Positions 2,093-62,886 of a stretch of 64,000 nucleotides of DNA are shown here, piece by piece (positions within the stretch are counted from its first letter, which is position 1; the number at the start of each line of letters is the position of its first letter). A program made the position numbers and the translations under genes. The stretch spans positions 1 through 64,000 of the forward strand of contig JASFQK010000004.1 in the NCBI GenBank assembly GCA_050115495.1. The letters are read 5' to 3'. This DNA is from Phycisphaerae bacterium. Its GTDB lineage: Bacteria > Planctomycetota > Phycisphaerae > UBA1845 > Fen-1342. The notes under the pieces were generated by a model. It was not told the DNA's origin. It was given only the letters and a program-made list of their open reading frames with translations, and did not search any database.

Positions 2093-3505
2093 CTACGAAG
2101 GCAAGGCCAATGCGCCGGTGCAGTTCGCCTGGAGCACGATGAAGTCTTGGAGGTCGACGTCGCCGTCGTGGTCCAAGTCTGCTGCCGCGCAGCCCGATGC
2201 GTGCGGGCAGTCCGGGCAGGACAGGCAATCGGCCAGGAGTTCGAGATCCACGCTGTCGATGTCCAGGTCACCGTCCATGTCGCCCGGGCCGCACACCCGC
2301 AGGTTGTCGAAGAACGTGTGGCCGTCGGCCAAGTCGCCGAACTCCTGCGTGATCTCGATCCCGAGCGCCAGTTCGTGTGTGCCGGAGAAGCTACGCACGT
2401 CCGCGTATTGATTGGGGTACTCGCGCACATCGCGGCCGAACCACAGCTTTTCGCCGTCCACGGCTACGTATGCCAGGCTGCTGTGGTCGTTTTGATGGAT
2501 GGACACGTCGAACCAGACGGCCAGCACATCGGTGAGGTCCACCGTCTGGTAGAACTCGAGCAGGTCGCCCGGATAGTGGCCGCCGTTGTAGCGGGAGGCG
2601 AACATGTAGAGCGAGAAGTCTCCGTCGGACACGTAGTTCCATTCGGGGTTGTTGATGAACGCCTCGCCGTGACCGTTGACGTTTCCCACGCGTCGCCACT
2701 GCCAAGACTCGGGCATGCCGCGATAGGGTGGGCCGTCGGTCCAGCCGCCGTTGGGCATCTCGCCGGCCCATTCGATCTCGAAGCTGGGGTTGCTGATCAC
2801 GCCCTCCTGTGGCAGTGCGGCGCCGTAAAGCTGGAAGGTCAGGTCAACGGGCTGCCAACCGGTGGGGAGACTACCACTATACGTGGTGATCACGCCCAGT
2901 GGATTCCTGCCCCAGTGCACCCAGTTCTCGCCGTCGGCCGAGAACGCCGCGGGGCCACCGTCCTGGAAGCCGGGCTGACGATGGCTCCAGTTGAACTCTT
3001 CCATCCCGAACACGTCGTGGCGAACCTGGACACCGACCCAGTACACGACGGGGTTATCGGGAGTGCCTTGCTGCAGGAAGCGATAATACTCGGGCAGTGT
3101 GATGTGGAATTCGCCGCCGCCCGCGTCGTACCAGCCGTAGTGGTTGGGGTCGCTCGGGTTGGCGACCGGCAGCCACCCGCTGTAGTAGAGCAATTCGCCA
3201 GGGTGGCTGTCGCCGTCTTCCGACGCCGGGACGTCGGCCCAGAAGAACACCTCGACGCCCAGGTTGTAGGGGTCGTCGATACCGCGAACGTGGATCTCAG
3301 AGATGCGGCCGGGCTCGGTGCAGACGAAATCGTCGGCACAGAGGAAGTAGAAATTGGCGTCGCCATCCCGCCAGCTTGGAGCGCGGAAGTAGTCGACGGG
3401 GCCGTATTGGTCGATCTTGAGCGGATCTCCCCAACCTGCCACGGCAGGTGTGACGATCAACAGCAGGGCCAAAAGACGCAGGAGCGAACCGAGTCGAGCA
3501 TTCAT
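2093..3505 (-). CDS. Secreted protein with C-terminal dockerin-like/EF-hand pair
   Basis: Signal peptide ending AVA-GWG; N-domain ADDFVCTEPGRISEIHVRG; central ISNPSFE beta-sandwich-like domain; C-terminal GDMDGDLDIDSVD...ADLDHDGDVDLQDF. Confidence 0.85.
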   Translation of the reverse strand: MNARLGSLLRLLALLLIVTPAVAGWGDPLKIDQYGPVDYFRAPSWRDGDANFYFLCADDFVCTEPGRISEIHVRGIDDPYNLGVEVFFWADVPASEDGDSHPGELLYYSGWLPVANPSDPNHYGWYDAGGGEFHITLPEYYRFLQQGTPDNPVVYWVGVQVRHDVFGMEEFNWSHRQPGFQDGGPAAFSADGENWVHWGRNPLGVITTYSGSLPTGWQPVDLTFQLYGAALPQEGVISNPSFEIEWAGEMPNGGWTDGPPYRGMPESWQWRRVGNVNGHGEAFINNPEWNYVSDGDFSLYMFASRYNGGHYPGDLLEFYQTVDLTDVLAVWFDVSIHQNDHSSLAYVAVDGEKLWFGRDVREYPNQYADVRSFSGTHELALGIEITQEFGDLADGHTFFDNLRVCGPGDMDGDLDIDSVDLELLADCLSCPDCPHASGCAAADLDHDGDVDLQDFIVLQANCTGALALPS

Positions 3506-3626
3506 GTCACTGACTCCGCAGAAGACTAAACGAGACTGGCCTGACGGGTCCTGACACGCGTCGTTGGCCAACAACTGCACGAACGCTTACTCAGACAACA
3601 CAGGCGCGTCGCTCTGCGGCGGTGAG

Positions 3627-4421
3627 CTACCGCCGGCGAACGACCATCAGCCCGCCCAGCATCAACAGGGCCAGCGTCGTCGGCTCGGGCGTGCCGTACA
3701 CCTGAAGCTCCATGTCCACCGAGCGCCAATCGTCGGGCAGCGTGCCGGCGTAGGAACCGAATTCCCAGTGGTCGCCGTTGAACGAGTCCTCTACGTAGTG
3801 GGCGCCCAGGTGCTGCCAGTTCCCGCCGCCATCGGTGTTCCCGACGACCGCGCCGCTGAGGTTGTGGATGTCGGGCGGGTTGGGCTCGTCGTTGCTGAGG
3901 TTATCGCGATGGCTCCAATAGAACTTCTCGATGTGGAAGATGTCGTGCTCGGGCTGCACACCGACCCAATAGGTGACCGGGTTGCTGGCTGAGCCCACCT
4001 GGAGGAACCAGTCGTCTTCAGGGAGGGTGATGCAGAACTCCCCGGTGCCCGTGTCCCACCAACCTACCTTGTTTGGGTCGCTGCCACTGGCAGTGCCCAG
4101 GTCCCAGGACTTGAGCAGCTCGCCCGGATGGGCGTCCTCGTCCGTCGTTGCCGGGATATCCGCCCAGATGAACACGCGGACGCCGAGGTTGTAGATATCG
4201 TCCACACCACGCACGCGGATCTCATTGATCCAGCCGGTCTGCGTGCAGAGGAAGTCGTCCGCCACCAATTGCCCGCCGCCCATGGTGCTCCACCAGCTTT
4301 CGGTCCTCCGGCCGTGGGGGTCGGGGTTGTCGAACTGATCCCACTTAACCGGATGGCCCCAGCCGGCCAGTGCTGCCGCACTCAGCGTGCTCATCGCCAT
4401 AATCGCAATCATCGTCCTCAT
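3627..4421 (-). CDS. PEP-CTERM sorting domain protein
   Basis: AGGAGGAG RBS, signal peptide, C-terminal TPEPTTLALLMLGGLMVVRRR; N-domain paralogous to 2093-3505. Confidence 0.92.
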   Translation of the reverse strand: MRTMIAIMAMSTLSAAALAGWGHPVKWDQFDNPDPHGRRTESWWSTMGGGQLVADDFLCTQTGWINEIRVRGVDDIYNLGVRVFIWADIPATTDEDAHPGELLKSWDLGTASGSDPNKVGWWDTGTGEFCITLPEDDWFLQVGSASNPVTYWVGVQPEHDIFHIEKFYWSHRDNLSNDEPNPPDIHNLSGAVVGNTDGGGNWQHLGAHYVEDSFNGDHWEFGSYAGTLPDDWRSVDMELQVYGTPEPTTLALLMLGGLMVVRRR

Positions 4422-4428
4422 AGCAGAT

Positions 4429-4653
4429 CTCCTCCTCACGAAAGGACTACGGGCGACACCCCGTACAGGGCGTGTCGTCAGGATCCGCCGGCGCAGAAGA
4501 CAAACCGCTGCGAGATCGCAAGTCTCGCGCTTCCCGCACCACGGGCAACCGCTCAGGCCCTCCAGGTCTTGCTGTCGGTTTGTGCGTGCGCCGGGGAGCC
4601 ATGTCACGACAGAACGTCAGGATATGAGTGAGTGTCTCGGTCACAAACGCATA
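4429..4653 (-). promoter_or_regulatory. Duplicated control cassette, copy A (operator-like repeat, degenerate promoter, structured leader, RBS)
   Basis: Aligns without gaps to 5318-5542 at offset 889; manual count 106/140 identical in the leader and 22/26 in the repeat block. Confidence 0.8.
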
Positions 4654-4825
4654 CAGGTCGATTCTGATGGGGAGTGCAGCGAGTGAGAAATGGTTGGACG
4701 TCCCCATGGGTCAGAACCTCATTCGTGCCGAGCGACCTTTCGAACACCAGGACGCCGAGATCGTGCGACTGGCCGTACGAGCGCTGGCTCAATTTGGCAC
4801 AGACGCATCGCACTGCGCCCGTGGA

Positions 4826-5311
4826 CTACCGCCGGCGAGCAAGCGTGAGCCCGCCCAGGACCAGCAGAATCAGCGTCGCTGGCTCTGGGACCTGGTGGAA
4901 GTTCGTGACGTCCATATGGCCGGTGTCGTAGGCGCTGTCCAACGACCAAATACCGATGTCAAACGAATCGCCGGCCGTCAGGTTCAGCGAGAGGCTGCCG
5001 ATGGTATGGCCCGAACCGTCAGCGAACTCCGTCTTGTCCCCGTTGATGCGATAGAAGGCGGCCTCGAAGCCGTCGTCCGTCCAGTAGTCGAAGTCGAACG
5101 TGAGCACGCCGGTGGCCGGGGCGATGCCGCTGAAGAAGCCCTCGGATTCTTGAAGCCCAGGGCCCCCGGGGCCATCCACATGCATCGCATCCGGCGAGTA
5201 CAGCGTGCCGGAGCCGTATCCGTTCCACACGAAACCGAAATCGTCGATGTCAGCGGCGCCGGCGACGGCGGCCAGGACTCCCAACAGCATCAGGGCAACA
5301 ACTCGTCTCAT
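4826..5311 (-). CDS. PEP-CTERM sorting domain protein
   Basis: Signal peptide, strong RBS, C-terminal VPEPATLILLVLGGLTLARRR. Confidence 0.92.
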   Translation of the reverse strand: MRRVVALMLLGVLAAVAGAADIDDFGFVWNGYGSGTLYSPDAMHVDGPGGPGLQESEGFFSGIAPATGVLTFDFDYWTDDGFEAAFYRINGDKTEFADGSGHTIGSLSLNLTAGDSFDIGIWSLDSAYDTGHMDVTNFHQVPEPATLILLVLGGLTLARRR

Positions 5312-5317
5312 GGTTTC

Positions 5318-5542
5318 CTCCTCCTCTTGCGAGGACTACCGACGACACCCCACGCAGGGCGCCTCATCACGATCGGGCGGTGCGGAAGACCATTCGCCGC
5401 GAAACCTCGGGTCTCGCACTTCCGCGACCACGGGCCACCGCTCAGGCCCACCGGATCGCGATTTCGATCGTAGCGATTGCCGAGGGGGCATGTCAAGATA
5501 AAATGTCAGGATATAATTAAGTGCCTCTGAATAAAATGGTTA
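5318..5542 (-). promoter_or_regulatory. Duplicated control cassette, copy B, with sigma70-like promoter
   Basis: Minus-strand TTGACA-N18-TACGAT; tandem TATC(C/T)TGACAT repeat overlapping -35; hairpin-rich leader; homologous to 4429-4653. Confidence 0.8.
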
Positions 5543-5595
5543 CGTGCGAAATAATGGTATGGACATGCCCGGGCGGAAGTCGCTAGAATGTCGGC

Positions 5596-6843
5596 ATGGC
5601 GCAGAAGCTCAGTGATGCCGAGCAGTCCTTCGAGAACCAGGCCGCCGAGGTCATGCAGCGTGTGCGCGCCGCCGTCGAGCACCTCGTCACGCGCGTCACC
5701 GGCCGCACGCACACGCGCAGCTCGGACCTGGTCGACGCGCTGACCGTCGATCCGCGTCTGGCGTGGAAGTTCGTCAAGATCATTCAGCCGGGCGACCCGC
5801 TGGCCGCGATCCGCTACGTGCCCGGTCCGCGCGGCATCAAGCTCTTCCTGAATGCGGCGGCGCGGCGGCCGGGCGTGGCCCCGGCCATCGCCGCTGCCAA
5901 GGAAGCTTTCGGCGACTTCGAAGCACTGGTGCGGCGTGAGGGCGGCGACCGCCGATCGTTCGACATGATGGTCGCCGGCCACAGTCAGACCGACCGCGGC
6001 GACGTCGACCTGGAGCACCGCAAGGGCGCCTTCACGCACAACAGCTACATCTGGGGTGTGCAGGCCCGCGCCCAGATTCACACGTATCTGGTGCAACCGT
6101 CCGGCGACGGTGAGCATCTGGACGCGGCGGTGGTGCGCGGCTTCGTGCGCTTGCGGCGTGTGCGGCCCCATACACCGTGGCGCATCTCACGCTTCTACAC
6201 CATCGACGATTCCGGCGAGGTGCACGGCGAGTTCGCACGCTCGCCCATCGATCCGCCCGACGAGGACGCGGTGCCTCTCTTGCGGCGGTTCTGCTCCAAG
6301 CCAATGCCCCAGGTCCGGCGAGAGGTCGGGCCGCATGCCGTGATTGACTACGTGCTGGCGGAGTCGGACGTGGGCAACACCGGAGCGGTCACGTGCCTGA
6401 CCGGCGAGCTGATCCGCAAGGCGGAGCCCTGTTTCGCCGACGACTTGCACGCCGTGCTCGGCACGAAGACGCCGCTGCGCACGCCGTGCGAGGTCGTCGT
6501 GGCGGACCTGTTCCTGCGTCGTGACTTCTTCGGGCAGATATCGCCGTCGCTCCGGCTGGTCAGCGACCTGTTCAGCGAGCGGATGGGCATTATCTATGGG
6601 CCGACGGATCAGCTCCCGCTGCAGGATCAGGTCGAGTCTCTGGGCGGCGGGCCGTACGTCGCGCCGATGCCGGAGATGCCGCGCTACGCGGAAATGATCC
6701 AGCACTGCGGCGATCGCCTGGGGTGGAACCTCGAGCAGTTCGACTGCTACAGGGTGCGGGTCCAGTACCCGCCAGTGCCCGCCGCGCTGGTGGTTCACTC
6801 GCCGCTGCCGCCGCGATCACGCGAAGCCGACGCGACCGGCTGA
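5596..6843 (+). CDS. Uncharacterised protein, putative HTH transcriptional regulator (paralog 1)
   Basis: 415 aa; RSSDLVDALTVDPRLAWKFV is HTH-like; full-length similarity to 9903-11141; TGGACA-N18-TAGAAT ends 6 nt before ATG. Confidence 0.7.
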   Translation: MAQKLSDAEQSFENQAAEVMQRVRAAVEHLVTRVTGRTHTRSSDLVDALTVDPRLAWKFVKIIQPGDPLAAIRYVPGPRGIKLFLNAAARRPGVAPAIAAAKEAFGDFEALVRREGGDRRSFDMMVAGHSQTDRGDVDLEHRKGAFTHNSYIWGVQARAQIHTYLVQPSGDGEHLDAAVVRGFVRLRRVRPHTPWRISRFYTIDDSGEVHGEFARSPIDPPDEDAVPLLRRFCSKPMPQVRREVGPHAVIDYVLAESDVGNTGAVTCLTGELIRKAEPCFADDLHAVLGTKTPLRTPCEVVVADLFLRRDFFGQISPSLRLVSDLFSERMGIIYGPTDQLPLQDQVESLGGGPYVAPMPEMPRYAEMIQHCGDRLGWNLEQFDCYRVRVQYPPVPAALVVHSPLPPRSREADATG

Positions 6844-6985
6844 GGTCACGCCCGGCCCGCGATAGCTGCACTCCCTGCCTTCTTCTCACAGCAAGCCGCC
6901 GCATCCCTCACTCATAGTCGACGGTCGGCCCGCCGCACGGGACGATTCTGTCGTTCATTGTCGCCGTGGGTTTCGCCGGTCTCAT

Positions 6986-7573
6986 GTGTCGGAGTATATG
7001 ACGGACGTGGAACCAGCCTGCCGGCCGGCGGCGGAGTTCGTGCGGATGAGCCAGGCACGCGGAGAAGAGGGCATCGCGGACATGATCCAAACGTATCGCG
7101 ATACGGTGCACCCCCTCTACGAGTTCGTTGCCCGGCGGGCCGGACGGTCTCGGCAGTTGGCCGAGGACGTCACGCAGGAAACGTACCTGCGGGCCGTTGT
7201 GCAGTGGCGAAACGGGCGGCCGCCCGATAATGCGCTGGCCTGGCTGCAAACCGTCGCCCGCCGGCTGCTGCTCAATCACTACCGCCGAAAGAGCCCCGCG
7301 TCGCTCGACGGCCTGGATCTCGCGCAGGTGCTGGAGACGGCGCCGGTGGCGGGGCCCGATGCGGCGGCCGTGGTGTACTGGGGTCTGTCGCGGCTGGGAC
7401 GCGGTCCACGCCGACTGCTCGAGGCGTTCTATATCGAGGGTGCATCGACCCGAGCCATCGCGACGGAGCTCGGCGTGTCCGAGCGGGCTGTCGAAGGCCG
7501 TCTCCGCCGAGCGCGGCAGGCGTTGAAGAAACGATTGATGCCGATCATGCCAGAGCATGGAGACCAATCATGA
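6986..7573 (+). CDS. ECF RNA polymerase sigma factor
   Basis: LAEDVTQETYLRA, WLQTVARR (sigma2); IATELGVSERAVEGRLRRAR (sigma4). Confidence 0.92.
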   Translation: MSEYMTDVEPACRPAAEFVRMSQARGEEGIADMIQTYRDTVHPLYEFVARRAGRSRQLAEDVTQETYLRAVVQWRNGRPPDNALAWLQTVARRLLLNHYRRKSPASLDGLDLAQVLETAPVAGPDAAAVVYWGLSRLGRGPRRLLEAFYIEGASTRAIATELGVSERAVEGRLRRARQALKKRLMPIMPEHGDQS

Positions 7574-8517
7574 ATGCGGAAGCTATGCCGAATCCGGAGT
7601 TCGTGAAGTTCCTCGAGTGGCAACTCGAATCTACCGTTCGTCGCCAGAAGACGCTCAACGGCACGCCACGAGCGGCCAAGCTCGTGCGCTCCCGGGTGGG
7701 TACGATGTTGGCCCTCGCCGTTGTGTCCATGTTCATCGGCGGCAGCGGCACCTACGCCGCTACGCACCGCAGCGACAGGGTGGCGGCGGAGTTGTACATA
7801 GCCCGCGGCGAAGCGATGCTGGAGATCGCCCGAACGCTAGAGCAGTACGCGGGCCGCGATCTGGACCACGTACGCTCGCTCCGCGAAGCGGGTATGGTGA
7901 TGGCCCGGGAGGTGCTGCGGGCGGAAGCCCGGTACGTAGAAACACAGTCGGTCGTCGAGACCCGCGAATTGGAGCTCACCGAGACGCGCCTCACCGGCAA
8001 GGAGCCGAATGACGGCTTGGCCGCCCCGCGCGTCGACGGTTGCGATTTCGTGTCCGAGCGCCTGGCCGTTCGCCGGCCGCCGCTGGAAGCGCAGCTCAAG
8101 TTCGCGGTCACCGTGGCGCAGCGCAAGCAGGTGCTTGTCGAGAGCGGTTTGGCGATGGCGACCGAGTTGAAGGACGCTCAGGCCCATGTCGCCGATATCC
8201 AGGCGAACCTGGACGACCTGGACCAGCGCCTGACGCTACGGGCGTCGTTCCTGGCCGGCGAGTTGTCCGCGCGGGAGGTGGAGCTCCAGGGCATGCGTCT
8301 GTCGGCAAGTGTCGCCCGCGAGGCGGCGACTCGGCGGCTGGCAGTAGTCACCGAGCAGCACCAGCGGCGGGCGGATCTGGCGGAATGCGGCATGGTCCAC
8401 GAGACGGAGCTGCGGGCCAGCGAGGCGACGCTGCGCACAATCCAGGCTGAGGTGGAGCTCGCGGAGCTGGAACTGCGCATCATCGATGAGAAGATCGCGG
8501 AAACGCCGGACGAATAG
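7570..8517 (+). CDS. Putative anti-sigma factor, single TM with helical-hairpin extracytoplasmic region
   Basis: ATGA overlap with ECF gene; short N-terminal domain, one TM, repeated LxExG(M/L)x...E(L/V)xxA motifs. Confidence 0.65.
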   Translation: MNAEAMPNPEFVKFLEWQLESTVRRQKTLNGTPRAAKLVRSRVGTMLALAVVSMFIGGSGTYAATHRSDRVAAELYIARGEAMLEIARTLEQYAGRDLDHVRSLREAGMVMAREVLRAEARYVETQSVVETRELELTETRLTGKEPNDGLAAPRVDGCDFVSERLAVRRPPLEAQLKFAVTVAQRKQVLVESGLAMATELKDAQAHVADIQANLDDLDQRLTLRASFLAGELSAREVELQGMRLSASVAREAATRRLAVVTEQHQRRADLAECGMVHETELRASEATLRTIQAEVELAELELRIIDEKIAETPDE

Positions 8518-8566
8518 ACGCGGCTGCTACCGCCGACGCCGGCGGTGCAGCATGGGATACATCACA

Positions 8567-8602
8567 GAGGGCCGACCGGCGCTGGTGTGCCGATCGGCCC
8601 TC
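8567..8602. terminator. Hairpin between convergent genes
   Basis: GAGGGCCGACCGGC-N8-GCCGATCGGCCCTC. Confidence 0.55.
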
Positions 8603-8631
8603 CGGCCAGGTTGGAGATGGGGAGCGTGGTC

Positions 8632-9735
8632 TTAGCGGCGGCGCAGCAGAGCCAGCGTGCCGAGGACGATCGACAGGAACGACGTCGGCTCCGGAATCAG
8701 CAGGACGAACCCGCGGTTCTGTCCGTTGTACGTGCCGTTTCCGGCGATCCAGCCGGTGTCACTGATGGCGATGCCTTCACGGAGGACCCAGCCCGAGCCC
8801 GCCGGAAGGAAGTCATTCAGGTCGGTCATGACGCCGTCTTCCCAGATGAACGCGTGCGTCTGGCCGCTGTCCGTGGAAGAGACGCCGACGGCCACGCCCA
8901 GGTTGTTGATGTCCCAGGCAAAGCTGTAGTTCCCGCCCAGATGGCCCATGTCGATGATGTTGCCTTGTTCCCACAGAGTGGCATGGATGATCTCGTCCGG
9001 CACGAGGTCCGAGTAGCCGACGATCTGGCCCGAATCATTGATGCCCCAGGCCTCGGCGTAGCACCAGTCGGATTCACCAATCGTGCCCAGGTCCTTCGAG
9101 GTCTCACCGTCGAAGGCGTAGGCCCGCCACGGGCCGTCACCCATCCAGTAGCCGGTGGTCTGGCCGAGGTTGTTGATGCGGTGGCCCGAATAGAACACGC
9201 TGCCGGGGACAGCGGGAATCAGACTCGAGGGCTCGGACTGCCCCACCTGCCAAGTGCACGCCGCGAACTCCGGGGAGCCGCCGGTTTCGTACGAGCCGAC
9301 AATGACGCCGGCATCGTTGATGCCCATGCCTTCAGACCAGCACGTCGAGCTGTTGCCCGGCGGGTTGAGCGTCGTCACCGCTCCGGCATCCCAGGAGAAC
9401 CCGCGGTTGTCGCCACTCGTGCGGCCGTACCAGCCGGCCACCTGCCCGTTGTTGTTGATCCCCCAGGCCAGACCCTGGGTCACGCCGGTCTGACCGGCGA
9501 GCAGGTCGGTCATGGTGCCGTTGTCCCACAGGTACGCCATCCGCGTGCCGCTCGCGGTGTAGGATGTACCGACGACCTGGCCATGATTGTTGACGTCAAA
9601 CACTTGACTTCTCGACCCATCGGACGGGATCTCCCAGATGCCCTCGATGTCGTCGGCACACACCGACACTACGGCGAGCAGGGCTATCGCCGTGGTCAAC
9701 CAGCGCGACAGATTGAGCTTGTGCAACTGCATCAT
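8632..9735 (-). CDS. PEP-CTERM protein with HAF-type extracellular repeats
   Basis: Repeated AWGINxxGQ(I/V)VG and HAFIWEDGVMTDL; C-terminal IPEPTSFLSIVLGTLALLRRR. Confidence 0.93.
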   Translation of the reverse strand: MMQLHKLNLSRWLTTAIALLAVVSVCADDIEGIWEIPSDGSRSQVFDVNNHGQVVGTSYTASGTRMAYLWDNGTMTDLLAGQTGVTQGLAWGINNNGQVAGWYGRTSGDNRGFSWDAGAVTTLNPPGNSSTCWSEGMGINDAGVIVGSYETGGSPEFAACTWQVGQSEPSSLIPAVPGSVFYSGHRINNLGQTTGYWMGDGPWRAYAFDGETSKDLGTIGESDWCYAEAWGINDSGQIVGYSDLVPDEIIHATLWEQGNIIDMGHLGGNYSFAWDINNLGVAVGVSSTDSGQTHAFIWEDGVMTDLNDFLPAGSGWVLREGIAISDTGWIAGNGTYNGQNRGFVLLIPEPTSFLSIVLGTLALLRRR

Positions 9736-9902
9736 CTCCTCCTCCTTTACAAGTGTTGAGGAACTCGGGGTTGCTACACCAGTGCCTTGCAGGCACGACT
9801 CCTCGAACGAAGTCGCCGACCGGACGACGCTACCACTTCATGCCGCCCGGTGCGGCGACGTACTTCACACGGGGGCCGGCGTTTGCCGGTGGTACTCCTC
9901 TC

Positions 9903-11141
9903 TCACGGCCGCGGGGGCAGGCGTTGCCACGCGCATACCGACGTCGGAATCGGCGGATACTGCATCTGCACGCGGAACACGTCGAAGCGATCGGCCGCCC
10001 AGCCAAGGCGATCGAACATGCTCTGCACCATCTCCGCGTACTGTGGCACGAGCGGCGTGCGGGCCACCTGCACACCCTGACCCAGGTGCGTTACCGACTC
10101 GAACACGCGCAATCGATCCCGGTCATCGCGCATGTCCGGCCCGCCGAGTTCGCCGTACACCCGCAGCTCACGCTCCGTGGGCCCAAAAAGGTCTTGGTGG
10201 ACGAACTGATCGAAGATCAACCGTTCGACCGGCGTGCGCAACTGCACGCCAAACTCGGCGATCTCGTTGTGTTCGTCCTGATAGCGCGTGGCGGCGTTAC
10301 GCGACACCTCGGCCATGTAGAACGTCATTGCCCCCCGATTGCCGATCGGTGTCTCGACCAGCTCGTCCTCGAAGAAGCCGTGCGCGCCGCGGCGTCGCCG
10401 GAACTTCGGCAACGGCTGCGAGCAGAACTCGGTCAGCAGTGGGACGCCGCCCGCCGCTCCCAGGCTCTCGGTGCCGCCCAGCGGTTCGCGCGCGTCGGGT
10501 CGGCGCTCGGTCCAGTCATCGTCCGTGCCTTTGGTCCGGAAGAGGACGTGCGGGACGTTCTGTCGCGTGCGGCGGAAGTTGCGGAATCCCCGGAGGCGCG
10601 TCACGTCGAACAGGCCGTCCTGGGCCGATGGCTGCATGAGAAGCGCTACCACGTGCACCTGGGCTTGCATGCCCCAGATGTAGCTGCCGGAGTTGAACAT
10701 AGCCTGGCGCTGGGCGAGATCCGCCTTCTGGGCTCCGTCGCTGGCGCAAGCCGTCAGGAGCATGTTGAGCGATTCCCGATCACCCGCATGAACTCTGGTC
10801 AGGCGGTCGAAATCCCTCATGGCGGCGCGGGCGGTATCGATCAGGGTGGGTTCGACGCCGCGCAGTTCCGCGGCGGCCAAGAACCTGCTTAGGGGCACCG
10901 CGGTGGGGACGTGGTGGCCGGCGAGGAAGAGATCAGGCTGGTAGACGACGTTGGCGATTTGCCAGCCCAGTTTGCGGTGGATACCCAGTGCTTTCGAGAC
11001 TTCGTGGGCGCGGGTGACTTCGCCGGGCAGGCGATGCAGGATGGCCACGAATGCGTCGCGAACGCGTCCGATTACCTCCGGAGCTTCGACCCCAAACGGG
11101 CGTGTCCCCAAGCCGGCAGCTTTCTCTCCCGTCGTTTCCAT
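9903..11141 (-). CDS. Uncharacterised protein, putative HTH transcriptional regulator (paralog 2)
   Basis: RAHEVSKALGIHRKLGWQI HTH-like; shares SYIWGxQA, VPLLxxFCSxP, LRTPxE, YAEM...DRLGW, QYPP with 5596-6843. Confidence 0.7.
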   Translation of the reverse strand: METTGEKAAGLGTRPFGVEAPEVIGRVRDAFVAILHRLPGEVTRAHEVSKALGIHRKLGWQIANVVYQPDLFLAGHHVPTAVPLSRFLAAAELRGVEPTLIDTARAAMRDFDRLTRVHAGDRESLNMLLTACASDGAQKADLAQRQAMFNSGSYIWGMQAQVHVVALLMQPSAQDGLFDVTRLRGFRNFRRTRQNVPHVLFRTKGTDDDWTERRPDAREPLGGTESLGAAGGVPLLTEFCSQPLPKFRRRRGAHGFFEDELVETPIGNRGAMTFYMAEVSRNAATRYQDEHNEIAEFGVQLRTPVERLIFDQFVHQDLFGPTERELRVYGELGGPDMRDDRDRLRVFESVTHLGQGVQVARTPLVPQYAEMVQSMFDRLGWAADRFDVFRVQMQYPPIPTSVCAWQRLPPRP

Positions 11142-11470
11142 GCGCCTGAAAATAACGGATTCCGGCCTGGATTTCCAGGTGAATTTCCGAAACACACACG
11201 GAAATGCGCCGCGACAGGCAACCAGGCAAGGGAAAGTGTTCATAAACTCTTGTAGTACAGTGTCTTATGGCTAATGAATCGCCGGGCGACCGCTGTTGTT
11301 CGATGAACACCCGGGGCGCGTGATGTTGACCCCTGGAGTCCTGCCGACACGCGGCGGGTGTCGCCGCGGATCCCGCCATCATCTCAGGGCCTCATCGGGC
11401 GCTGCGTGGTCGAGCGAACGACGAGCGCTTCCGAGCGGCAGGCGCTGGCGGCGCCCCGGACAGAGTACGC

Positions 11471-11500
11471 TTGAACACCTTATGGCGTATGCACTACAAT
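11471..11500 (+). promoter_or_regulatory. Sigma70-like promoter of PEP-CTERM gene
   Basis: TTGAAC-N18-TACAAT, about 230 nt upstream of ATG 11733. Confidence 0.5.
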
Positions 11501-11732
11501 GCAGGCAGGTGGGAAGTCTGATTCGACGGAACCAGACTTTCGCAGGGAAGCAAAGGGAACGGAGGCAGGCAACGGAGGGCGAGCTTCACCTCTCCGCGTA
11601 TTCGCTTGCGCGTTTCGTGTACTCGGCGCCGGCTTGTTCGTTGGGCCTGGCATTATCAGCCGAGTTCGTGCTTCTACTCAATTCTTGTGGCGTGGAAGGC
11701 ATCACCGCTGTCCACGGAAAGGAGGATGGGTC

Positions 11733-13094
11733 ATGCGCATGATTGTTTGGTTGCGTTTGGCAACCGTTGTCGCTTGCGGCGTACTGCTCGCCCTGGCGAC
11801 GCCGGTGGCAGCCCAGACGGCCACGGCGCTGGTTCGGGAGGAACAGGAGCTCCCCGGCGCTCCAGGGCAGGTGGTCGACTCGATCGGTAACTCGGCGGTG
11901 AACCACGTCGGCGGTTATGCATTCGGTGTCGTCACGGTGGGCACGGGCACGCTGAGTACCGGTTGGGGCAACGCAACGGGTGGCGCGGGCACCGTGCTGC
12001 GTACCGAGGGGATCTTCGGCGACTACGATCAGACGTCGTGGGAGAGCTTCTACGGTATGGCCAACTCCGGCGCGCTAAGCTACAGCCCGCTCTGCACGTA
12101 CATTCCCTCAGGCACGACGAGCCTGGACAGCGTCTGGCTGGAGGACACCTTCATCGCCATGGAGGAGACGGCGTATCCGCACGCCGCCGGCTACTACTGG
12201 AGTTTCGGCAGCCGGCCGGGCGTGACGGCCGACGGTGTGCCGTACTTCGTCGGCGGTATCACGACGACGCCGGGCGGTTCGACGCAGAACCGCGGTCTGT
12301 TCTACGGCATGTCGGCCACGCCGCTGTTGATGGGCGGCGACACACTGCCCAACCTGCCCTACGTGCTCGACACGAGCAGCACCGTCAGCTTCGACTACCG
12401 CTTCTCGGCGCTCGGCACGAACTACATGGGCGAAGTCCAGATGGATACGACCAGCACCGTCGACAATGCCATGGTGATGAACGGTTCGGGTCTTATGCTG
12501 GGCGGCGGCCTCGTTCGCGAGGGCTCCACGATGCCGGAGGCTATCGGCGGTCTGCCCGGCGAGAACTGGGACAACTTCGACTACCTCAGCATCACCGAGT
12601 CCGGCAGCTACCTCATGACCGGCGACAGCGATGCCGCCAGTGGCGTTGACGAGTTCGTCATCGTCAACGGCCAGGTCGTCATGCGCGAAGGCGACATGCT
12701 TGGCGACTACACTCTCAGCGGTTCGATCGAAGGTGGCTACATGAACGAGGACGGCGACTGGGCCGTCGTCTGGGACGTCAACGAACCGGGCCGGGCGAAT
12801 ATCGAAGTGCTGATCGTCAATGGCGACATCGTTCTCAAAGAAGGCGATGCGGTGGATTGGGATGGCGACGGTTTGCCTGACGCCGACGCGATCGTGACCG
12901 ACTTCACCGGGCTCAGCGCCCTGACCGTCGGCGACCGCGGCATGCGAGGTGAGGACTTCTTCGATATCTACACGACGATCGACGTGGACATAGATGGCCG
13001 CGTTTTCGAGGGCGGATTCCGGCTGTCCATTCCTGAGCCAGCGACGTTCTCGCTGTTGCTCCTGGGCGGTCTGGCCCTGCTGCGCCGACGGTAG
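11733..13094 (+). CDS. PEP-CTERM sorting domain protein, beta-repeat-like
   Basis: AAGGAGG RBS, signal peptide, repeated (M/V/L)(R/K)EG(D/S) motifs, C-terminal IPEPATFSLLLLGGLALLRRR. Confidence 0.92.
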   Translation: MRMIVWLRLATVVACGVLLALATPVAAQTATALVREEQELPGAPGQVVDSIGNSAVNHVGGYAFGVVTVGTGTLSTGWGNATGGAGTVLRTEGIFGDYDQTSWESFYGMANSGALSYSPLCTYIPSGTTSLDSVWLEDTFIAMEETAYPHAAGYYWSFGSRPGVTADGVPYFVGGITTTPGGSTQNRGLFYGMSATPLLMGGDTLPNLPYVLDTSSTVSFDYRFSALGTNYMGEVQMDTTSTVDNAMVMNGSGLMLGGGLVREGSTMPEAIGGLPGENWDNFDYLSITESGSYLMTGDSDAASGVDEFVIVNGQVVMREGDMLGDYTLSGSIEGGYMNEDGDWAVVWDVNEPGRANIEVLIVNGDIVLKEGDAVDWDGDGLPDADAIVTDFTGLSALTVGDRGMRGEDFFDIYTTIDVDIDGRVFEGGFRLSIPEPATFSLLLLGGLALLRRR

Positions 13095-13144
13095 GCCGGT
13101 TGTTGGTCGACGAGTCTCAGGATCGGCGCGCTACGCGTGAGGCG

Positions 13145-13445: not shown

Positions 13446-14084
13446 ATGATGGGCGTGCCGATCTCCGACGAGGTGGTGCACGCGGCGGCGGAGGGCGTGT
13501 CTACAGCCCGCGACGCGTTGCTCGCAGCGGTGGAGCCGCGGGTGCGGTTGATGGTGGCGGCGCGGCTGAGTCCACGACCGGAGCAATTCGCCGCCGTGGA
13601 CGACATCACACAGGAAGTCCTGCTCGCAACGATGACAGGACTAAGGGGACTGCGCATACAGACGGCGGCCGGCCTGCGGGCCTTCATCGCCGCGACGGCC
13701 AGGAACAAGGTCGCCGACTATATCGATGGCGGGCGTCATGCGGGCATCGGCGGGGCGACGGCAACGGTGTGCCTCGAGACGACGATCCACGCGCTGTCCG
13801 GGGCTGCTCCGTTGTGGGCCTTGCTGTCGAGCAGCGGCACGACGCCCTCAGCAGCCTTCGAGCGCGATGAGCTGGCGGTCCGAATGCTGGGTGAGTTGGG
13901 GCGGTTGCCCGAGCACTATCGCGACATCGTTACGCTGGCCTTCTTCGGCGGGCTGACCACGAGAGAGATCGCGGCGGACAAGGGCAAGGAGCGCGGGGCC
14001 GTGGCCATGATGTTGCTACGGGCCATCCGCATACTGCGGCGGCAAATGACGGGTTCGAGCCGGTGTGGCTTCGTGGATGGTTGA
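13446..14084 (+). CDS. ECF sigma factor, kinase-associated planctomycete type
   Basis: VDDITQEV, ARNKVAD, long sigma2-sigma4 linker with SSSGTTPS, LPEHYRDIVTL...TTREIA; overlaps downstream kinase; start uncertain. Confidence 0.85.
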   Translation: MMGVPISDEVVHAAAEGVSTARDALLAAVEPRVRLMVAARLSPRPEQFAAVDDITQEVLLATMTGLRGLRIQTAAGLRAFIAATARNKVADYIDGGRHAGIGGATATVCLETTIHALSGAAPLWALLSSSGTTPSAAFERDELAVRMLGELGRLPEHYRDIVTLAFFGGLTTREIAADKGKERGAVAMMLLRAIRILRRQMTGSSRCGFVDG

Positions 14085-16584
14085 GCCGGGTGGAGACAAG
14101 CCGGACGAACTGGCCGACCGCGTCGATGAGGCGTTGGCGGCCCTGCTGGAGAAGGGGGACAGCGCGCCGCTGGCGGGGTTACTGGGCGAGTCGGATGACG
14201 GTCCCGGACTGGACGCGATGTTTGGTCCACTGCTCGCTGGCGGGGCGGTGCGGGTGGTCGGACTGCCGGCGGACGGCGAGGTCCCGGGATACCAGATCGT
14301 GCGGGAGGTCGGCCGTGGGGGGATGGGTGTGGTCTACGAGGCGCAGCAGGAGCACCCGCATCGGCGGGTGGCATTGAAAGTGCTGCCGACCCTGGGCGCG
14401 GACAAACACGCCCGTGAGCTGTTCCACCGCGAGGTGCAGACGCTGGCCCTTCTGTCACATCCGGGTATCGCCACGATCTACCACGCCGGGCAGACCGAAG
14501 GTGGGCAGCAGTTCTTCACGATGGAGCTCGTCGAGGGGGCCACGCTGATCGAGTACTGCCGGGAGCACGGACTGTCCCGCAGGGACCGGCTGCTGCTGTT
14601 TCTGCGGGTGTGCGAGGCGGTGGCCTACGCCCATCGCCACGGCGTCGTGCACCGCGACCTCAAGCCGGCGAACATCCGGGTGGACGCGGAGGGCAATCCG
14701 CGGCTGCTCGACTTCGGCCTGGCCCGCCTGACCGGAGCTGATGTGTCGTTGGTCACGCCGCCGACCGAGCCCGGGCGGATCATGGGCACGTTTTCGCACA
14801 TGAGTCCGGAGCAGGCCCGCGGTGACTCGGCGAAAATCGACGCGCGGGCGGATGTGTATGCGCTGGGCGTGATTCTGTACGAGCTGCTGTCAGGTCGGCG
14901 GCCGTACGAGCTGAAAGCGGCTTCCTCAATCGAGGTGGCGCGGATCATCTGCGAGCGGCTGCCGAAGCCGCCGAGTGCGCACGACCCGGCCCTGCGGGGC
15001 GATCTGGACACCATCGTGCTGAAGGCATTGGAGAAGGAGCGCGACCAGCGCTACGCCTCGGTCGAGGAGCTGGCCGATGACGTTCGGCGGCACATGCGGG
15101 GTGAGCCGCTCATGGCCCGGCGGCGGCGCGTGAGCTACGTGGCGTCCCGGTGGGTGCGGCGGCATCGGCGGCGGTTGCTGGCGGCGGCGGGAGCTGTGCT
15201 GCTGGCCGTGCTGGGCGTCCATGGCGGCTTGTGGTGGCGTGACGCGGCGCTGGACGCTCGGCGGGAGCGTGAAGTGGCCAGAATGCGCGCGTCGATCGTC
15301 GAAATCGCTCGCGATGCGGAGCTCGTCCGGCTGGAGGTCGCGTTCAGACGTGTGCAATCGCTAGTCGACCGGCGCGATGAGGCCCCGGAGTTGGAGTTGC
15401 TGTGGGCCAGCATCATCTTTCGGCTCGGCCGGCAGAACGGCGATCGGAGCAGTGAGACGCACGCTATCCACCGCTTGTTGGAAATACCCGCTGGTGACGC
15501 AAGAAGCTGGGCCGCCACGGCGTTGCTCGCAGAGATGGGTGAGCAAGCGAAGGACACGCGGCTGGCGTCGCTGGACGGCAGCGCTGCGGCGGTTGTGCCG
15601 GACACAACCGAGGCACGCTATCTCCGCACCTACGCCACGATGGACCCGGCTCGGGCCTGTGCGTATGCCGAGGAGGCGGCCCGGCGTGATCCGGACCACT
15701 ACCTCACGGCAATCCGGCTGGCCAATCTGCGCCTGGTGACGGCCGACTTCGCCGGAGCCCGCGAGGCGGCCAAACGTGTGCGAGCTTTGGGGGGCGACGA
15801 TTTCACGTGGCGGATGTTCGAGGGCAATGCGTGCCTGATGGCCGGGGAGTACGAGGCGGCAGTGCAGCAATACAAGCTTGCGGCCAAGTGCCGTCCGGAA
15901 CGCTACGAGCCGTGGGACGGACAGGGCCATGCTTACCTCTGTGCGGGGAAGTACGCCGCGGCCGCGGTTGCGACGGAAGGGTGGGACGGCGACTCGGGAG
16001 TGATGTGGGTCGTGTACCGACGAGCCACGCTGCTGTGGATCCTGGGCCGGCGGGAAGAGGCTGTGGAGGAGTACCGCAAGTTCCGGGCGCAGTACGGGCG
16101 GACGTTTTACGCGGACCACCGTCTGTACCTGGTACTCGCCGAGCTGGCCTACCTTCACGATCGGGCGGGGGAAATCGCCGAAGCCGAGCGAGCGGAGCAA
16201 GCGGCGCAGGAGGCCCTGGCGATGGGTACCGAGGCGGCGCGTGCGAATGCTTGGATGTCGACCCTCTTCCAGTGCCTGCGTGGTGAGATCTCGCCCGACG
16301 AGCTGCGAGCCACCACGGCGCCGAGGAGCAAAACGTACACCTGCGAGGCCTGCTATTACGCCGGCGAGACCTGTCTACTGCGGGCCCGGGCCGCCCGCAA
16401 TGTGGAGGAAGTCAAACGCTGGCTGGCGGTAGCGGGCGACGCCTTCCGCGCCTGCGTCGACACCGGTCTCGTGCTGGAAGAGGGCAAGTACCGTCCACAG
16501 GCGATGAACGAATATCACTTGGCCGTGTGGCGGCTCGATCTGCTGGCGCATGGGGATCCGGCGATTCCCACCGTCGGCGACTAG
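14077..16584 (+). CDS. Membrane Ser/Thr protein kinase with TPR-like C-terminal region
   Basis: GRGGMGVVY, VALK, HRDLKPAN, DFG, MSPE, DVYALG; TM near residue 375; helical repeats. Confidence 0.95.
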   Translation: MVEPGGDKPDELADRVDEALAALLEKGDSAPLAGLLGESDDGPGLDAMFGPLLAGGAVRVVGLPADGEVPGYQIVREVGRGGMGVVYEAQQEHPHRRVALKVLPTLGADKHARELFHREVQTLALLSHPGIATIYHAGQTEGGQQFFTMELVEGATLIEYCREHGLSRRDRLLLFLRVCEAVAYAHRHGVVHRDLKPANIRVDAEGNPRLLDFGLARLTGADVSLVTPPTEPGRIMGTFSHMSPEQARGDSAKIDARADVYALGVILYELLSGRRPYELKAASSIEVARIICERLPKPPSAHDPALRGDLDTIVLKALEKERDQRYASVEELADDVRRHMRGEPLMARRRRVSYVASRWVRRHRRRLLAAAGAVLLAVLGVHGGLWWRDAALDARREREVARMRASIVEIARDAELVRLEVAFRRVQSLVDRRDEAPELELLWASIIFRLGRQNGDRSSETHAIHRLLEIPAGDARSWAATALLAEMGEQAKDTRLASLDGSAAAVVPDTTEARYLRTYATMDPARACAYAEEAARRDPDHYLTAIRLANLRLVTADFAGAREAAKRVRALGGDDFTWRMFEGNACLMAGEYEAAVQQYKLAAKCRPERYEPWDGQGHAYLCAGKYAAAAVATEGWDGDSGVMWVVYRRATLLWILGRREEAVEEYRKFRAQYGRTFYADHRLYLVLAELAYLHDRAGEIAEAERAEQAAQEALAMGTEAARANAWMSTLFQCLRGEISPDELRATTAPRSKTYTCEACYYAGETCLLRARAARNVEEVKRWLAVAGDAFRACVDTGLVLEEGKYRPQAMNEYHLAVWRLDLLAHGDPAIPTVGD

Positions 16585-28716: not shown

Positions 28717-29064
28717 TCAGACGGTCATGTTCGACGTCTGGGACTGGGCCGGCTGCTCATCGGTGTGATTGTTCATGAGCTTGTCTTTCATGAGCCGGCC
28801 GATCTTGAACTTAACGGTGCGCTTGCGAGGTACTGGCACCTTCTCCATGGTCTTGGGGTTCTGGGCGAGACGGGCGGCCCGCTCGCGCAGCTCGAAGACG
28901 CCGAAGTCGCGGAACTCGAGGCGGCTGCCCTGACCGAGCTCGTCAACGATCTCGTCCAGGAAGCGCTGGACGATGCGTTTGACGATGACGCGCTTGTTGC
29001 CGGTTCGCTCGGCGATCCGGTCCACGAGGTCTTTTTTCGTCACGGTCCTGGTTGCTGTCTTCAT
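28717..29064 (-). CDS. HU/IHF family DNA-binding protein
   Basis: TKKDLVDRIA, LEFRDFGVF, AQNPKT, VKFK. Confidence 0.95.
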   Translation of the reverse strand: MKTATRTVTKKDLVDRIAERTGNKRVIVKRIVQRFLDEIVDELGQGSRLEFRDFGVFELRERAARLAQNPKTMEKVPVPRKRTVKFKIGRLMKDKLMNNHTDEQPAQSQTSNMTV

Positions 29065-61975: not shown

Positions 61976-62298
61976 CGGGAGCGTAACGGCAGACGGGTGA
62001 AGGATTTACGAACGGTGGTGGCATCCGCGGTTGGACGCGCGCGCCAGGCCGCGCAATATGTTTAATAGGCCGCAACGTGCAATAAGTGCAGTAAGACTTC
62101 GTGAAAATAAGAAAACGACATCTCACTGGTGTCTGCCGCCCGTCGTCCCCTCTTCGTTGGACGAACGCCTGTTGGATGTCCCCCAAGAAAGGGATCGCGG
62201 CCGGCGACGTGCGTCAGTGTGCCTGCCCTCGTGGGCAGCGCATGACAGCTCCATCGACGGCCGCGATCGTCATGAACCGGTTGTGTGGCCTATTCCGG

Positions 62299-62886
62299 CT
62301 ACCGCCGGCGGAGCGCCAGGGCGCCCAGGCCCAGCAGCAGAAGGCTGGCCGGCTCGGGCGTGAGGACCGCGCCGTCGAACCAGATGTCGTACAGATTGAC
62401 GTCCTCGGGTGGCACCAGGTCGTTCACGTCGGCCATCCGCACTATGATGTTCGCGCCGATCTCCGCGCCGCCATCGACGGTGTACGACACGCCGTCGAGT
62501 TCCTGCCAGGCGTCGACGCCGGTGACGTCGTAGTGGGCCGAGGCGAGTGGAATGAAGCCGTTGCCGTCATCCCAGCCGATCTGGAAGCGGGCGATACCGG
62601 TGCGGTTGCCGCCACCGATGGCCCAGCCCCAGAAGTCGTAGGTGACGCCGTCCATGAAGACAGCGGTCGTGGTCTGCTGGATCTTGCGGTCGAGGACACC
62701 CATGGCCTCGGCGTTGAACCAGTCACCGAGGGTCTCGTTGCCGGGGGCGCCGTAGACGCCGTGCTCGTAGACGCCGCCGCCAACCCAGGGGGCGAGGCCG
62801 GTTTCAAACCCGGGGTTTTCGAGGAGGTTCGCGTTCGCCGCCGCCGCCAGCATCAGGCCCGCGACGAGTACACAAATGATGCGCAT
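62299..62886 (-). CDS. PEP-CTERM sorting domain protein, carbohydrate-binding-like fold
   Basis: Signal peptide, NLLENPGFETG, C-terminal TPEPASLLLLGLGALALRRR. Confidence 0.92.
   Translation of the reverse strand: MRIICVLVAGLMLAAAANANLLENPGFETGLAPWVGGGVYEHGVYGAPGNETLGDWFNAEAMGVLDRKIQQTTTAVFMDGVTYDFWGWAIGGGNRTGIARFQIGWDDGNGFIPLASAHYDVTGVDAWQELDGVSYTVDGGAEIGANIIVRMADVNDLVPPEDVNLYDIWFDGAVLTPEPASLLLLGLGALALRRR

Follow-up and report, generated by a model that had tools for sequence, protein, structure and literature searches.

Local regulators such as TetR, LysR and lambda cI (between PR and PRM) stand head-to-head with their target, with operators between back-to-back promoters, and are often leaderless. 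In restriction-modification (R-M) systems, the C proteins are XRE-like dimers that activate a leaderless transcript from beside its -35 box, repress it from a second, overlapping operator and have their target co-transcribed, according to the part of the source available to us (PMC2175313). Dedicated regulation of PEP-CTERM genes is described for Proteobacteria, where PrsK/PrsR and sigma-54 act via a conserved upstream site (available part of PMC1569441). Here we analyse a window of 64,000 nucleotides from a Phycisphaerae bacterium (positions 1 to 64,000 of contig JASFQK010000004.1, assembly GCA_050115495.1), in which two open reading frames (ORFs), 5596-6843(+) (member 1) and 9903-11141(-) (member 2), are members of an unnamed family of proteins of about 410 residues. 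We consider it probable that each copy of this family is a locally acting regulator, with a predicted N-terminal helix-turn-helix (HTH) on a palindrome beside the -35 box of its own predicted leaderless promoter, that switches the neighbouring PEP-CTERM or dockerin gene.

The two ORFs are full-length paralogs (35% identity over 401 columns, E 1e-71); the earlier note on this DNA had presented them as such, and its coordinates are right, the frames are intact and the alignment carries the common motifs that it listed. That they belong to no named family also holds, since Pfam and NCBIfam searches at E 0.1 gave neither an assignment, and a scan of 27 close homologs against the same collections returned nothing beyond one stray match. 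The named homologs are hypothetical proteins of Phycisphaerae. Searches by sequence against solved structures gave no significant match, a hydropathy heuristic flagged no transmembrane segment in either protein, and no kinase, receiver or other signalling domain was found by Pfam or NCBIfam, a second domain in the same chain being predicted.

An iterated profile run against 65,877 six-frame ORFs finds 57 full-length copies and one fragment in this genome, more than the matches to any other regulator counted (sigma-70 37, HTH_3 26, MarR 13, TetR 5). The modules are clustered, six of them on one 35-kb contig. Profiles of the N- and C-domains reveal no stand-alone or differently fused copies in the genome beyond the one fragment, and a search for longer proteins with the N-domain gave, among the matches listed, 11 proteins, all of 345-458 aa. 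The idea that the same module occurs twice, as the earlier note had it, is overtaken by these counts, and the two loci in the window differ in layout. Among 1.84 billion representatives, a profile search (E 0.001) yields 2,878 clusters at 50% identity. Matches are present in 21 of 40 genomes of close relatives (1-13 each, 0 in the rest; this search scored only 44 of the 57 known copies in the source genome, so that the relatives' counts are lower bounds), in 62 of 300 genomes of the class and in 19 of 300 of the phylum. Thirty-six of the 38 named loci are in bins labelled as belonging to the Planctomycetota group, one in Acidobacteriota and one in Eisenbacteria; the relatives are scattered patchily over Planctomycetota, mostly in Phycisphaerae. 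The genomic comparison supports well the view that the family is real and undescribed. A maximum-likelihood tree was computed in quick mode; three copies, L060, L041 and L049 (G000 C8:50949, C12:23377, C4:66256), form a long-branched divergent subgroup, and one of the three and a typical copy stand tail-to-tail. Shortly after the end of the window, at 66256-67680 of the contig, comes a third member of the family.

Linkage to surface-protein genes was counted over 4,413 genes called with a hexamer model, PEP-CTERM and dockerin-like proteins being labelled with patterns of our own making. A divergent PEP-CTERM or dockerin-like neighbour is present at 42 of the 56 copies that have an upstream gene, compared with 65 of 4,284 other genes, and a divergent or co-directional downstream exoprotein gene at 48 of 57 copies, compared with 4 of 71 HTH_3, TetR, MarR and sigma genes (a control set from which 10 of 26 HTH_3 matches, without a called gene, were dropped). 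As a control rich in exoproteins, we took the 911 genes outside the family that have an exoprotein gene no more than three genes away; 57 of them face one (divergent pairs only). Conversely, 57 of the 139 PEP-CTERM genes (about 40%) lie in units headed by a family locus; the genome has one exosortase. Of 55 upstream neighbours, Pfam, which is stricter on such short motifs, recognizes 19 as PEP-CTERM and 6 as dockerin proteins, and by Pfam the cargo is unrelated from one neighbour to another (FGE-sulfatase-like, HAF/DUF3466, propellers, FG-GAP, GEVED). No R-M genes occur among these 55 neighbours, which are exoproteins and a few unrelated genes. The linkage that the earlier note had read from two loci is also seen in other genomes, at 20 of 38 loci with 3-kb flanks and 18 of 57 loci with 1.5-kb flanks, counts that come without a background rate.

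The start codons of the family have a promoter-like layout. In 26 of 53 copies TAnnnT ends 4-8 nt ahead of the start codon (four copies with no start in the interval used were dropped), against a shuffle mean of 4.2 (maximum 10) and 99 of 2,605 other first genes. The -10-like boxes of the two ORFs in the window, 6 and 7 nt before their ATGs, agree with the leaderless layout already claimed for them. Divergent promoters are of a near-consensus sigma-70 type and stand back to back, their -35 boxes separated by 19-88 bp. At member 1 the two back-to-back promoters, at 5471-5494 and 5562-5585, mirror each other (24-nt arms, 79% complementary), suggesting that one may have been derived from the other. 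An AT enrichment of the spacers, also reported before, is clear at 5401-5600 (GC 0.54) and only mild around 11001-11800 (0.58-0.63), relative to about 0.66.

Within the spacers we observe repeated palindromes in phase with these promoters. Family spacers have a 12-bp autocorrelation (z 8.3; lag 24, z 3.8) that is absent from 50 AT-matched divergent spacers, and perfect palindromes with 6-bp arms occur in 26 of 57 family spacers versus 4 of the 50 controls. Expectation maximisation (EM) on the spacers yields the motif WTTTCnnGAAAW, whose sites keep phase with the -35 box, lying about 16 and 26 bp upstream of it. The motif scores in none of 18 tRNA promoters, in 4 of 60 promoters of exoprotein genes without an adjacent family copy and in 10 of 362 others. 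The strict palindrome occurs 13 times in 14 kb of family spacers versus 12 times in 1.42 Mb of other intergenic DNA. Form and spacing vary with subfamily: TTT[CT]N1-2[GA]AAA is limited to the Trp57 clade (18 of 37 versus 1 of 20 in the genome), a restriction that is replicated in other genomes (16 of 35 versus 1 of 22), and over 143 distinct loci TTTC-N1-GAAA is found in 17 of 18 with H[RKE]KL[AG]W, the N3 form in 9 of 13 with [KR]VL[AT]SR, TTCATATGAA in 4 of 4 with T[KR]TLAWK, CCCWGGG in 5 of 13 with [ND]KNL[AT]WK and the N2 form in 15 of 87 others. We stress that these groups, defined by the putative recognition helix, were drawn after inspection of the data and that kin are not independent. 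Run clade by clade, EM yielded nothing but AT runs and was set aside. As far as sequence comparison reaches, the pattern shows that across families site and gene stay together in evolution even as the cargo changes, behaviour not expected of a generic UP element. Enriched, phased and specific to subfamilies, the palindromes are candidate cognate operators near the promoter. A strong palindrome of the family type also lies at the usual position before a PEP-CTERM gene at G000 C31:44200 with no adjacent family copy; this gene is a possible target in trans.

The earlier note had described an HTH followed by a novel sensor domain of about 300 residues; a helical, HTH-like N-domain and a separate C-domain are indeed predicted, but the fold of the latter is already known. 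The AlphaFold model of member 1 (27 sequences; predicted local distance difference test (pLDDT) 89.9, predicted template modelling score (pTM) 0.85) has helices over residues 12-153 and strands over 155-403, and the N-domain modelled alone reaches a pLDDT of 96.5. Residues of about 150-405 form a predicted beta-sandwich of the aminopeptidase-N/ribophorin I/VIT type (Z about 8-11), matching 3kd4 (Z 10.9, root mean square deviation (rmsd) 3.0, 170 aligned), OST1 6c26 (Z 10.3), ITIH1 6fpy (Z 8.8) and ERAP1 (Z 8.3) at 3-11% identity. In alignment the N-domain holds whole XRE domains (BldD 71/71, rmsd 3.0; RodZ 82/82, rmsd 3.4), and Foldseek rows for ClgR and C.Esp1396I appear at E 1-2 (C.Esp1396I E 1.8); neither the whole protein nor the N-domain has a Foldseek match at E 0.001. 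The Pfam models of the HTH clan that match do so weakly, each in 1-5 of the 57 N-domains (best E 2.7e-4; HTH_31 in 2 of 57), no XRE hidden Markov model (HMM) scores above its cut-off for the two proteins or the 27 close homologs, and a genome-wide HTH_3 search lists none of the 57 family loci. In the ESM Atlas the N-domain has template modelling (TM) scores of 0.36-0.47 to HTH_31 regions, and when the named Atlas clusters were searched by features for the N-domain, nothing usable came up. Since these fold and HMM matches are weak and non-significant, we regard an N-terminal HTH as likely and XRE membership as not established. Across 114 sequences Arg386 and Pro392 are invariant, Asp304, Arg190, Arg119, Arg188, Asp176 and His308 are 80-96% conserved, and the putative recognition-helix positions 52-58 differ by subfamily.

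Two further Atlas observations concern these domains. An unnamed 262-aa Planctomycetota cluster of 462 members shares the fold of the N-domain over residues 14-135 (TM 0.73), and in other phyla a similar sandwich (TM 0.39-0.49 by query) is fused to metallophosphoesterase, DUF4062, peptide deformylase or an XRE HTH, hinting that the sandwich may be a mobile sensor domain. Actinobacterial HTH_31 proteins (310 aa, and 415 aa with peptide deformylase) resemble residues 116-414 in predicted structure and have an N-terminal XRE-type HTH; with a TM of 0.40 by query and 0.40-0.52 by target and no sequence link, they are a lead only, and are themselves uncharacterised, with an unnamed C-terminal domain. 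M1 aminopeptidases carry a zincin catalytic domain after the sandwich, whereas the family proteins end after it and have no peptidase HMM match; and whereas the sandwich is known from aminopeptidase-N, ribophorin I, VIT and DUF3857-type proteins, here it would be cytoplasmic and fused to an HTH-like domain.

From these observations, we hypothesize that the protein would bind, presumably as a dimer, a palindrome of 11-13 bp centred at about -47, often with further units at steps of about 12 bp. Where the layout is divergent, as is common, the sites lie between back-to-back -35 boxes, and a single occupied array would govern the two genes together; where it is that of HRKL[AG]W, as at member 2, the target would lie downstream and be co-transcribed. 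Occupancy of the -47 site may give autogenous activation, and repression may follow once further units reach the -35 box, as in C proteins. We infer DNA binding, the sign of control and a ligand, the sign being read from site position only; within this model, and by analogy, activation followed by repression has roughly an even chance, and plain repression is a possible but somewhat less probable scheme. The C-terminal sandwich (Arg187/188/190/386/388, Asp176/304, His308) may bind an anionic small molecule, as its conserved arginines suggest, or mediate oligomerisation; this is the weakest step. In terms of the earlier note, a one-component regulator of surface genes is retained on the strength of linkage, leaderless promoters and an HTH-like domain, and its shared module and novel fold are given up, as is TAA-N19-TTA as the operator.

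The logic resembles that of C.PvuII, C.AhdI and C.Esp1396I in the predicted HTH, the palindromes by the protein's own -35 box, the predicted leaderless transcript and a candidate operator that varies with the putative recognition helix (available part of PMC2175313), and the layout of member 2, known here from sequence alone, matches it. C proteins differ in being small, HTH-only, tied to nuclease genes and provided with two operators 15 bp apart, whereas the family proteins have 410 aa, including a 250-aa beta-sandwich, units of about 12 bp, mostly divergent loci and surface-protein targets. For the divergent loci, a cI-like element flanked by back-to-back promoters is a fitting model too; the searches linked the family to TetR, LysR or cI neither by sequence nor by domain, and the C-terminal fold is different. 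PrsR is one global enhancer-binding response regulator that works with sigma-54, in contrast to dozens of one-component paralogs with sigma-70-type promoters, one per locus; the PrsR model TIGR02915 has 0 of 49 genome matches above its cut-off (best 393.5 of 502.6 bits), and its domain is absent from the two proteins in the window. One-component regulation is a known kind of control; for the domain pairing, the operators and per-gene control of PEP-CTERM genes we found no description in Pfam, NCBIfam, the PDB or the literature (which included few subscription papers and no supplements), and the part of PMC12078418 available to us has nothing on the family.

Several observations weigh against a local, DNA-binding regulator. 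Nine of the 57 copies and 18 of the 38 outside loci are without a detected exoprotein neighbour. Fold searches with the N-domain gave no significant match (Foldseek best E 0.96), and generic helical bundles (best Z 6.5) fit it better than the XRE domains of HigA, RodZ and BldD (Z 4.7-5.4). A perfect TTTC/GAAA site is present in only 39 of 114 loci, and member 1 is without one. Sites track the C-domain as well as the HTH, by Mantel r (0.124 versus 0.12) and by nearest-neighbour site agreement (36 versus 35 of 39, permuted 12.7), so that the co-variation may be shared descent; the Mantel tests, unable to separate the HTH from whole-protein relatedness, were dropped as HTH-specific evidence. A clade-A operator, TCTC..GAGA, picked out post hoc in the genome (8 of 20 versus 1 of 37), was discarded when it did not replicate elsewhere (3 of 22 versus 4 of 35). 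In addition, the palindromes coincide in position with an UP element: they span about -52 to -42, and their TTT..AAA pattern resembles the UP consensus of E. coli.

The palindromes could then be UP elements or sites of a nucleoid protein, with the family protein acting otherwise, for example as the exported protein's partner in the cytoplasm or on nascent RNA; a nucleoid-type site, TAA-N19-TTA, does exist in 8 of 57 spacers, and XRE membership of the N-domain is without statistical support. We consider this unlikely, because the motif scores in so few tRNA and other promoters, because the period is 12 bp and not 10-11, and because one common binder would not predict that spacer length and sequence shift with subfamily; target folds are unrelated, which argues against a dedicated chaperone. 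The same shifts bear on a view in which the proteins do bind DNA, but as one shared, redundant pool on a TTTC/GAAA half-site, their linkage reflecting co-duplication rather than private control. That half-site does recur in several subfamilies, and a few strong sites do lie before exoprotein genes without an adjacent copy (the 4 of 60 promoters given above), but spacer lengths differ, palindromes are unrelated between subfamilies and residues 52-58 of the putative recognition helix are variable, and we judge the shared pool very improbable. Still harder to credit is a mobile or recombining cassette of gene and palindromic region, whose protein would move, invert or shuffle surface-protein genes: although copy number is very uneven (57 here, 0-13 in 40 relatives), with the clustering and the fragment noted above, the paralogs have intact frames and diverged long ago (identity to member 1 of 24-58%), the sites keep a fixed distance from the -35 boxes, and no recombinase or transposase family or fold was matched in Pfam, NCBIfam or structure searches of the proteins. 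We therefore retain the locally acting regulator as our working hypothesis.

The TAA-N19-TTA site, which the earlier note had singled out in both spacers, is present in both, but it is as common in control spacers (6 of 57 family spacers, or 8 in a second count, versus 6 of 50 AT-matched controls) and was rejected as the family operator. It has 119 intergenic copies genome-wide, as against 11-31 at other spacings. Among distinct sites, T at 8 with A at 16 is seen in 44 of 109 (6 of 146 controls), and against the reversed IHF consensus WATCAAnnnnTTR (available part of PMC10380432) at least 4 of 6 further positions of its halves agree in 33 of 109 sites versus 10 of 146 controls; the TTG part fits and the ATW part is weak. 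Because it occurs in 6 of 8 DxRLAW loci, a DNA-bending protein likely assists at the long spacer of member 1. The site is also found at 61984-62008 and, at ten contig ends, near the termini of a repeated element, and an HU/IHF-family protein at 28717-29043(-) (Pfam Bac_DNA_binding, E 6.8e-27) is a candidate binder.

Features of the two family loci in the window
Position	Strand	Feature	Remarks
2093..3505	-	DUF7901-dockerin protein, 470 aa	Similar protein start behind divergent PEP-CTERM gene in relative L002
3627..4421	-	DUF7901 PEP-CTERM protein, 264 aa	405 bp beyond 4826-5311; possible second target of member 1
4826..5311	-	PEP-CTERM protein, 161 aa, likely target of member 1	Pfam, NCBIfam
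5467..5496	-	Predicted sigma-70 promoter, divergent PEP-CTERM gene	TTGACA-18-TACGAT; 63 bp between its -35 box and that of member 1
5490..5514		Candidate operator of member 1: two 12-mers in tandem, 13 bp apart	7.8 and 7.5 bits to family matrix
5518..5542		TAA-N19-TTA	Exact in 7/8 aligned close relatives, one change in 1
5560..5589	+	Predicted leaderless sigma-70 promoter, member 1	TGGACA-18-TAGAAT, ends 6 nt before ATG at 5596
5596..6843	+	Family member 1, 415 aa	Predicted helical N-domain 12-148, HTH-like helices 42-63, beta-sandwich 155-403; DxRLAW subfamily
8632..9735	-	HAF-repeat PEP-CTERM protein, 367 aa	Likely cognate target of member 2, 167 bp downstream
9903..11141	-	Family member 2, 412 aa	HRKLGW subfamily
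11149..11177	-	Predicted leaderless sigma-70 promoter, member 2	TGGAAA-17-TATTTT, ends 7 nt before ATG at 11141; read by eye
11183..11193		TTTC-N1-GAAA palindrome, candidate operator	Centre about -47 from member 2 ATG, 5 bp upstream of -35
11243..11267		Second TAA-N19-TTA	Genome-wide IHF-like site
11733..13094	+	PEP-CTERM protein, 453 aa	Divergent from member 2; own promoter-like site 11471-11500

Both head-to-head pairs described earlier exist. At member 1 the facing gene is PEP-CTERM by Pfam (E 2.5e-5), and relatives keep a divergent PEP-CTERM gene. The tandem 12-mers start at 5490 and 5503, the first overlapping the -35 box of the target, and no perfect TTTC/GAAA site is found there; a 12-mer at 4614-4625, upstream of 3627-4421, is nearly identical to the candidate operator at 5503-5514 and is a possible second site for member 1. 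Downstream, 6986-8517(+) holds an extracytoplasmic function (ECF) sigma gene (6986-7573) followed by a coiled-coil-like protein of 315 aa without a Pfam family.

At member 2 the facing gene, 11733-13094, scores E 0.0036, under the Pfam cut-off and over that of TIGR02595, but is probably not the primary target. The closest paralog of member 2 (62%) has a PadR gene opposite it and, downstream, a gene 53% identical to 8632-9735, so that the duplicated unit would be regulator plus downstream gene; since members of this subfamily are also often upstream of a co-directional exoprotein gene, 8632-9735 is the likelier target. The palindrome at 11183-11193 is invariant in 14 of 14 aligned loci, which were chosen as subfamily members seen to carry it. 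A short way downstream of the promoter-like site that belongs to 11733-13094 there is an inverted repeat at 11514-11539 (arms of 11 nt, 91%); it may form a 5' hairpin or serve as an operator of its own. The locus makes up a small share of one metatranscriptome (contigs 11532-13139, pieces 9505-9655 and 9727-9877, none listed on family genes), whose contigs were not used as evidence because DNA cannot be excluded. Beyond it, 13446-16584(+) holds the paired genes of a Ser/Thr kinase-TPR protein and an ECF sigma factor of the planctomycete type, and a further PEP-CTERM gene lies at the end of the window (62299-62886(-)).

The paper that defined PEP-CTERM held, in the part available to us, that further regulators and DNA motifs were still to be found outside the PrsR class (PMC1569441). 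The present family is a concrete candidate regulator of PEP-CTERM genes in Planctomycetota, with predicted operators open to testing in a heterologous host; through it a sandwich of the aminopeptidase-N/VIT type turns up in a likely regulator, and its natural pairs of recognition helix and operator offer a set for the study of specificity diversification and for orthogonal switches. More speculatively, and on a view that we hold to be rather doubtful, the roughly 57 copies would be self-activating switches, each with its own operator variant, that set single surface proteins heritably on or off without DNA rearrangement; cross-talk through TTTC/GAAA would give combinatorial or mutually exclusive coats, and the role of the beta-sandwich would be that of a ligand sensor in the cytoplasm, of a new kind. 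If such a bank of switches is real, the PEP-CTERM genes in units headed by a family locus, about 40% of those in this genome, would be wired through it.

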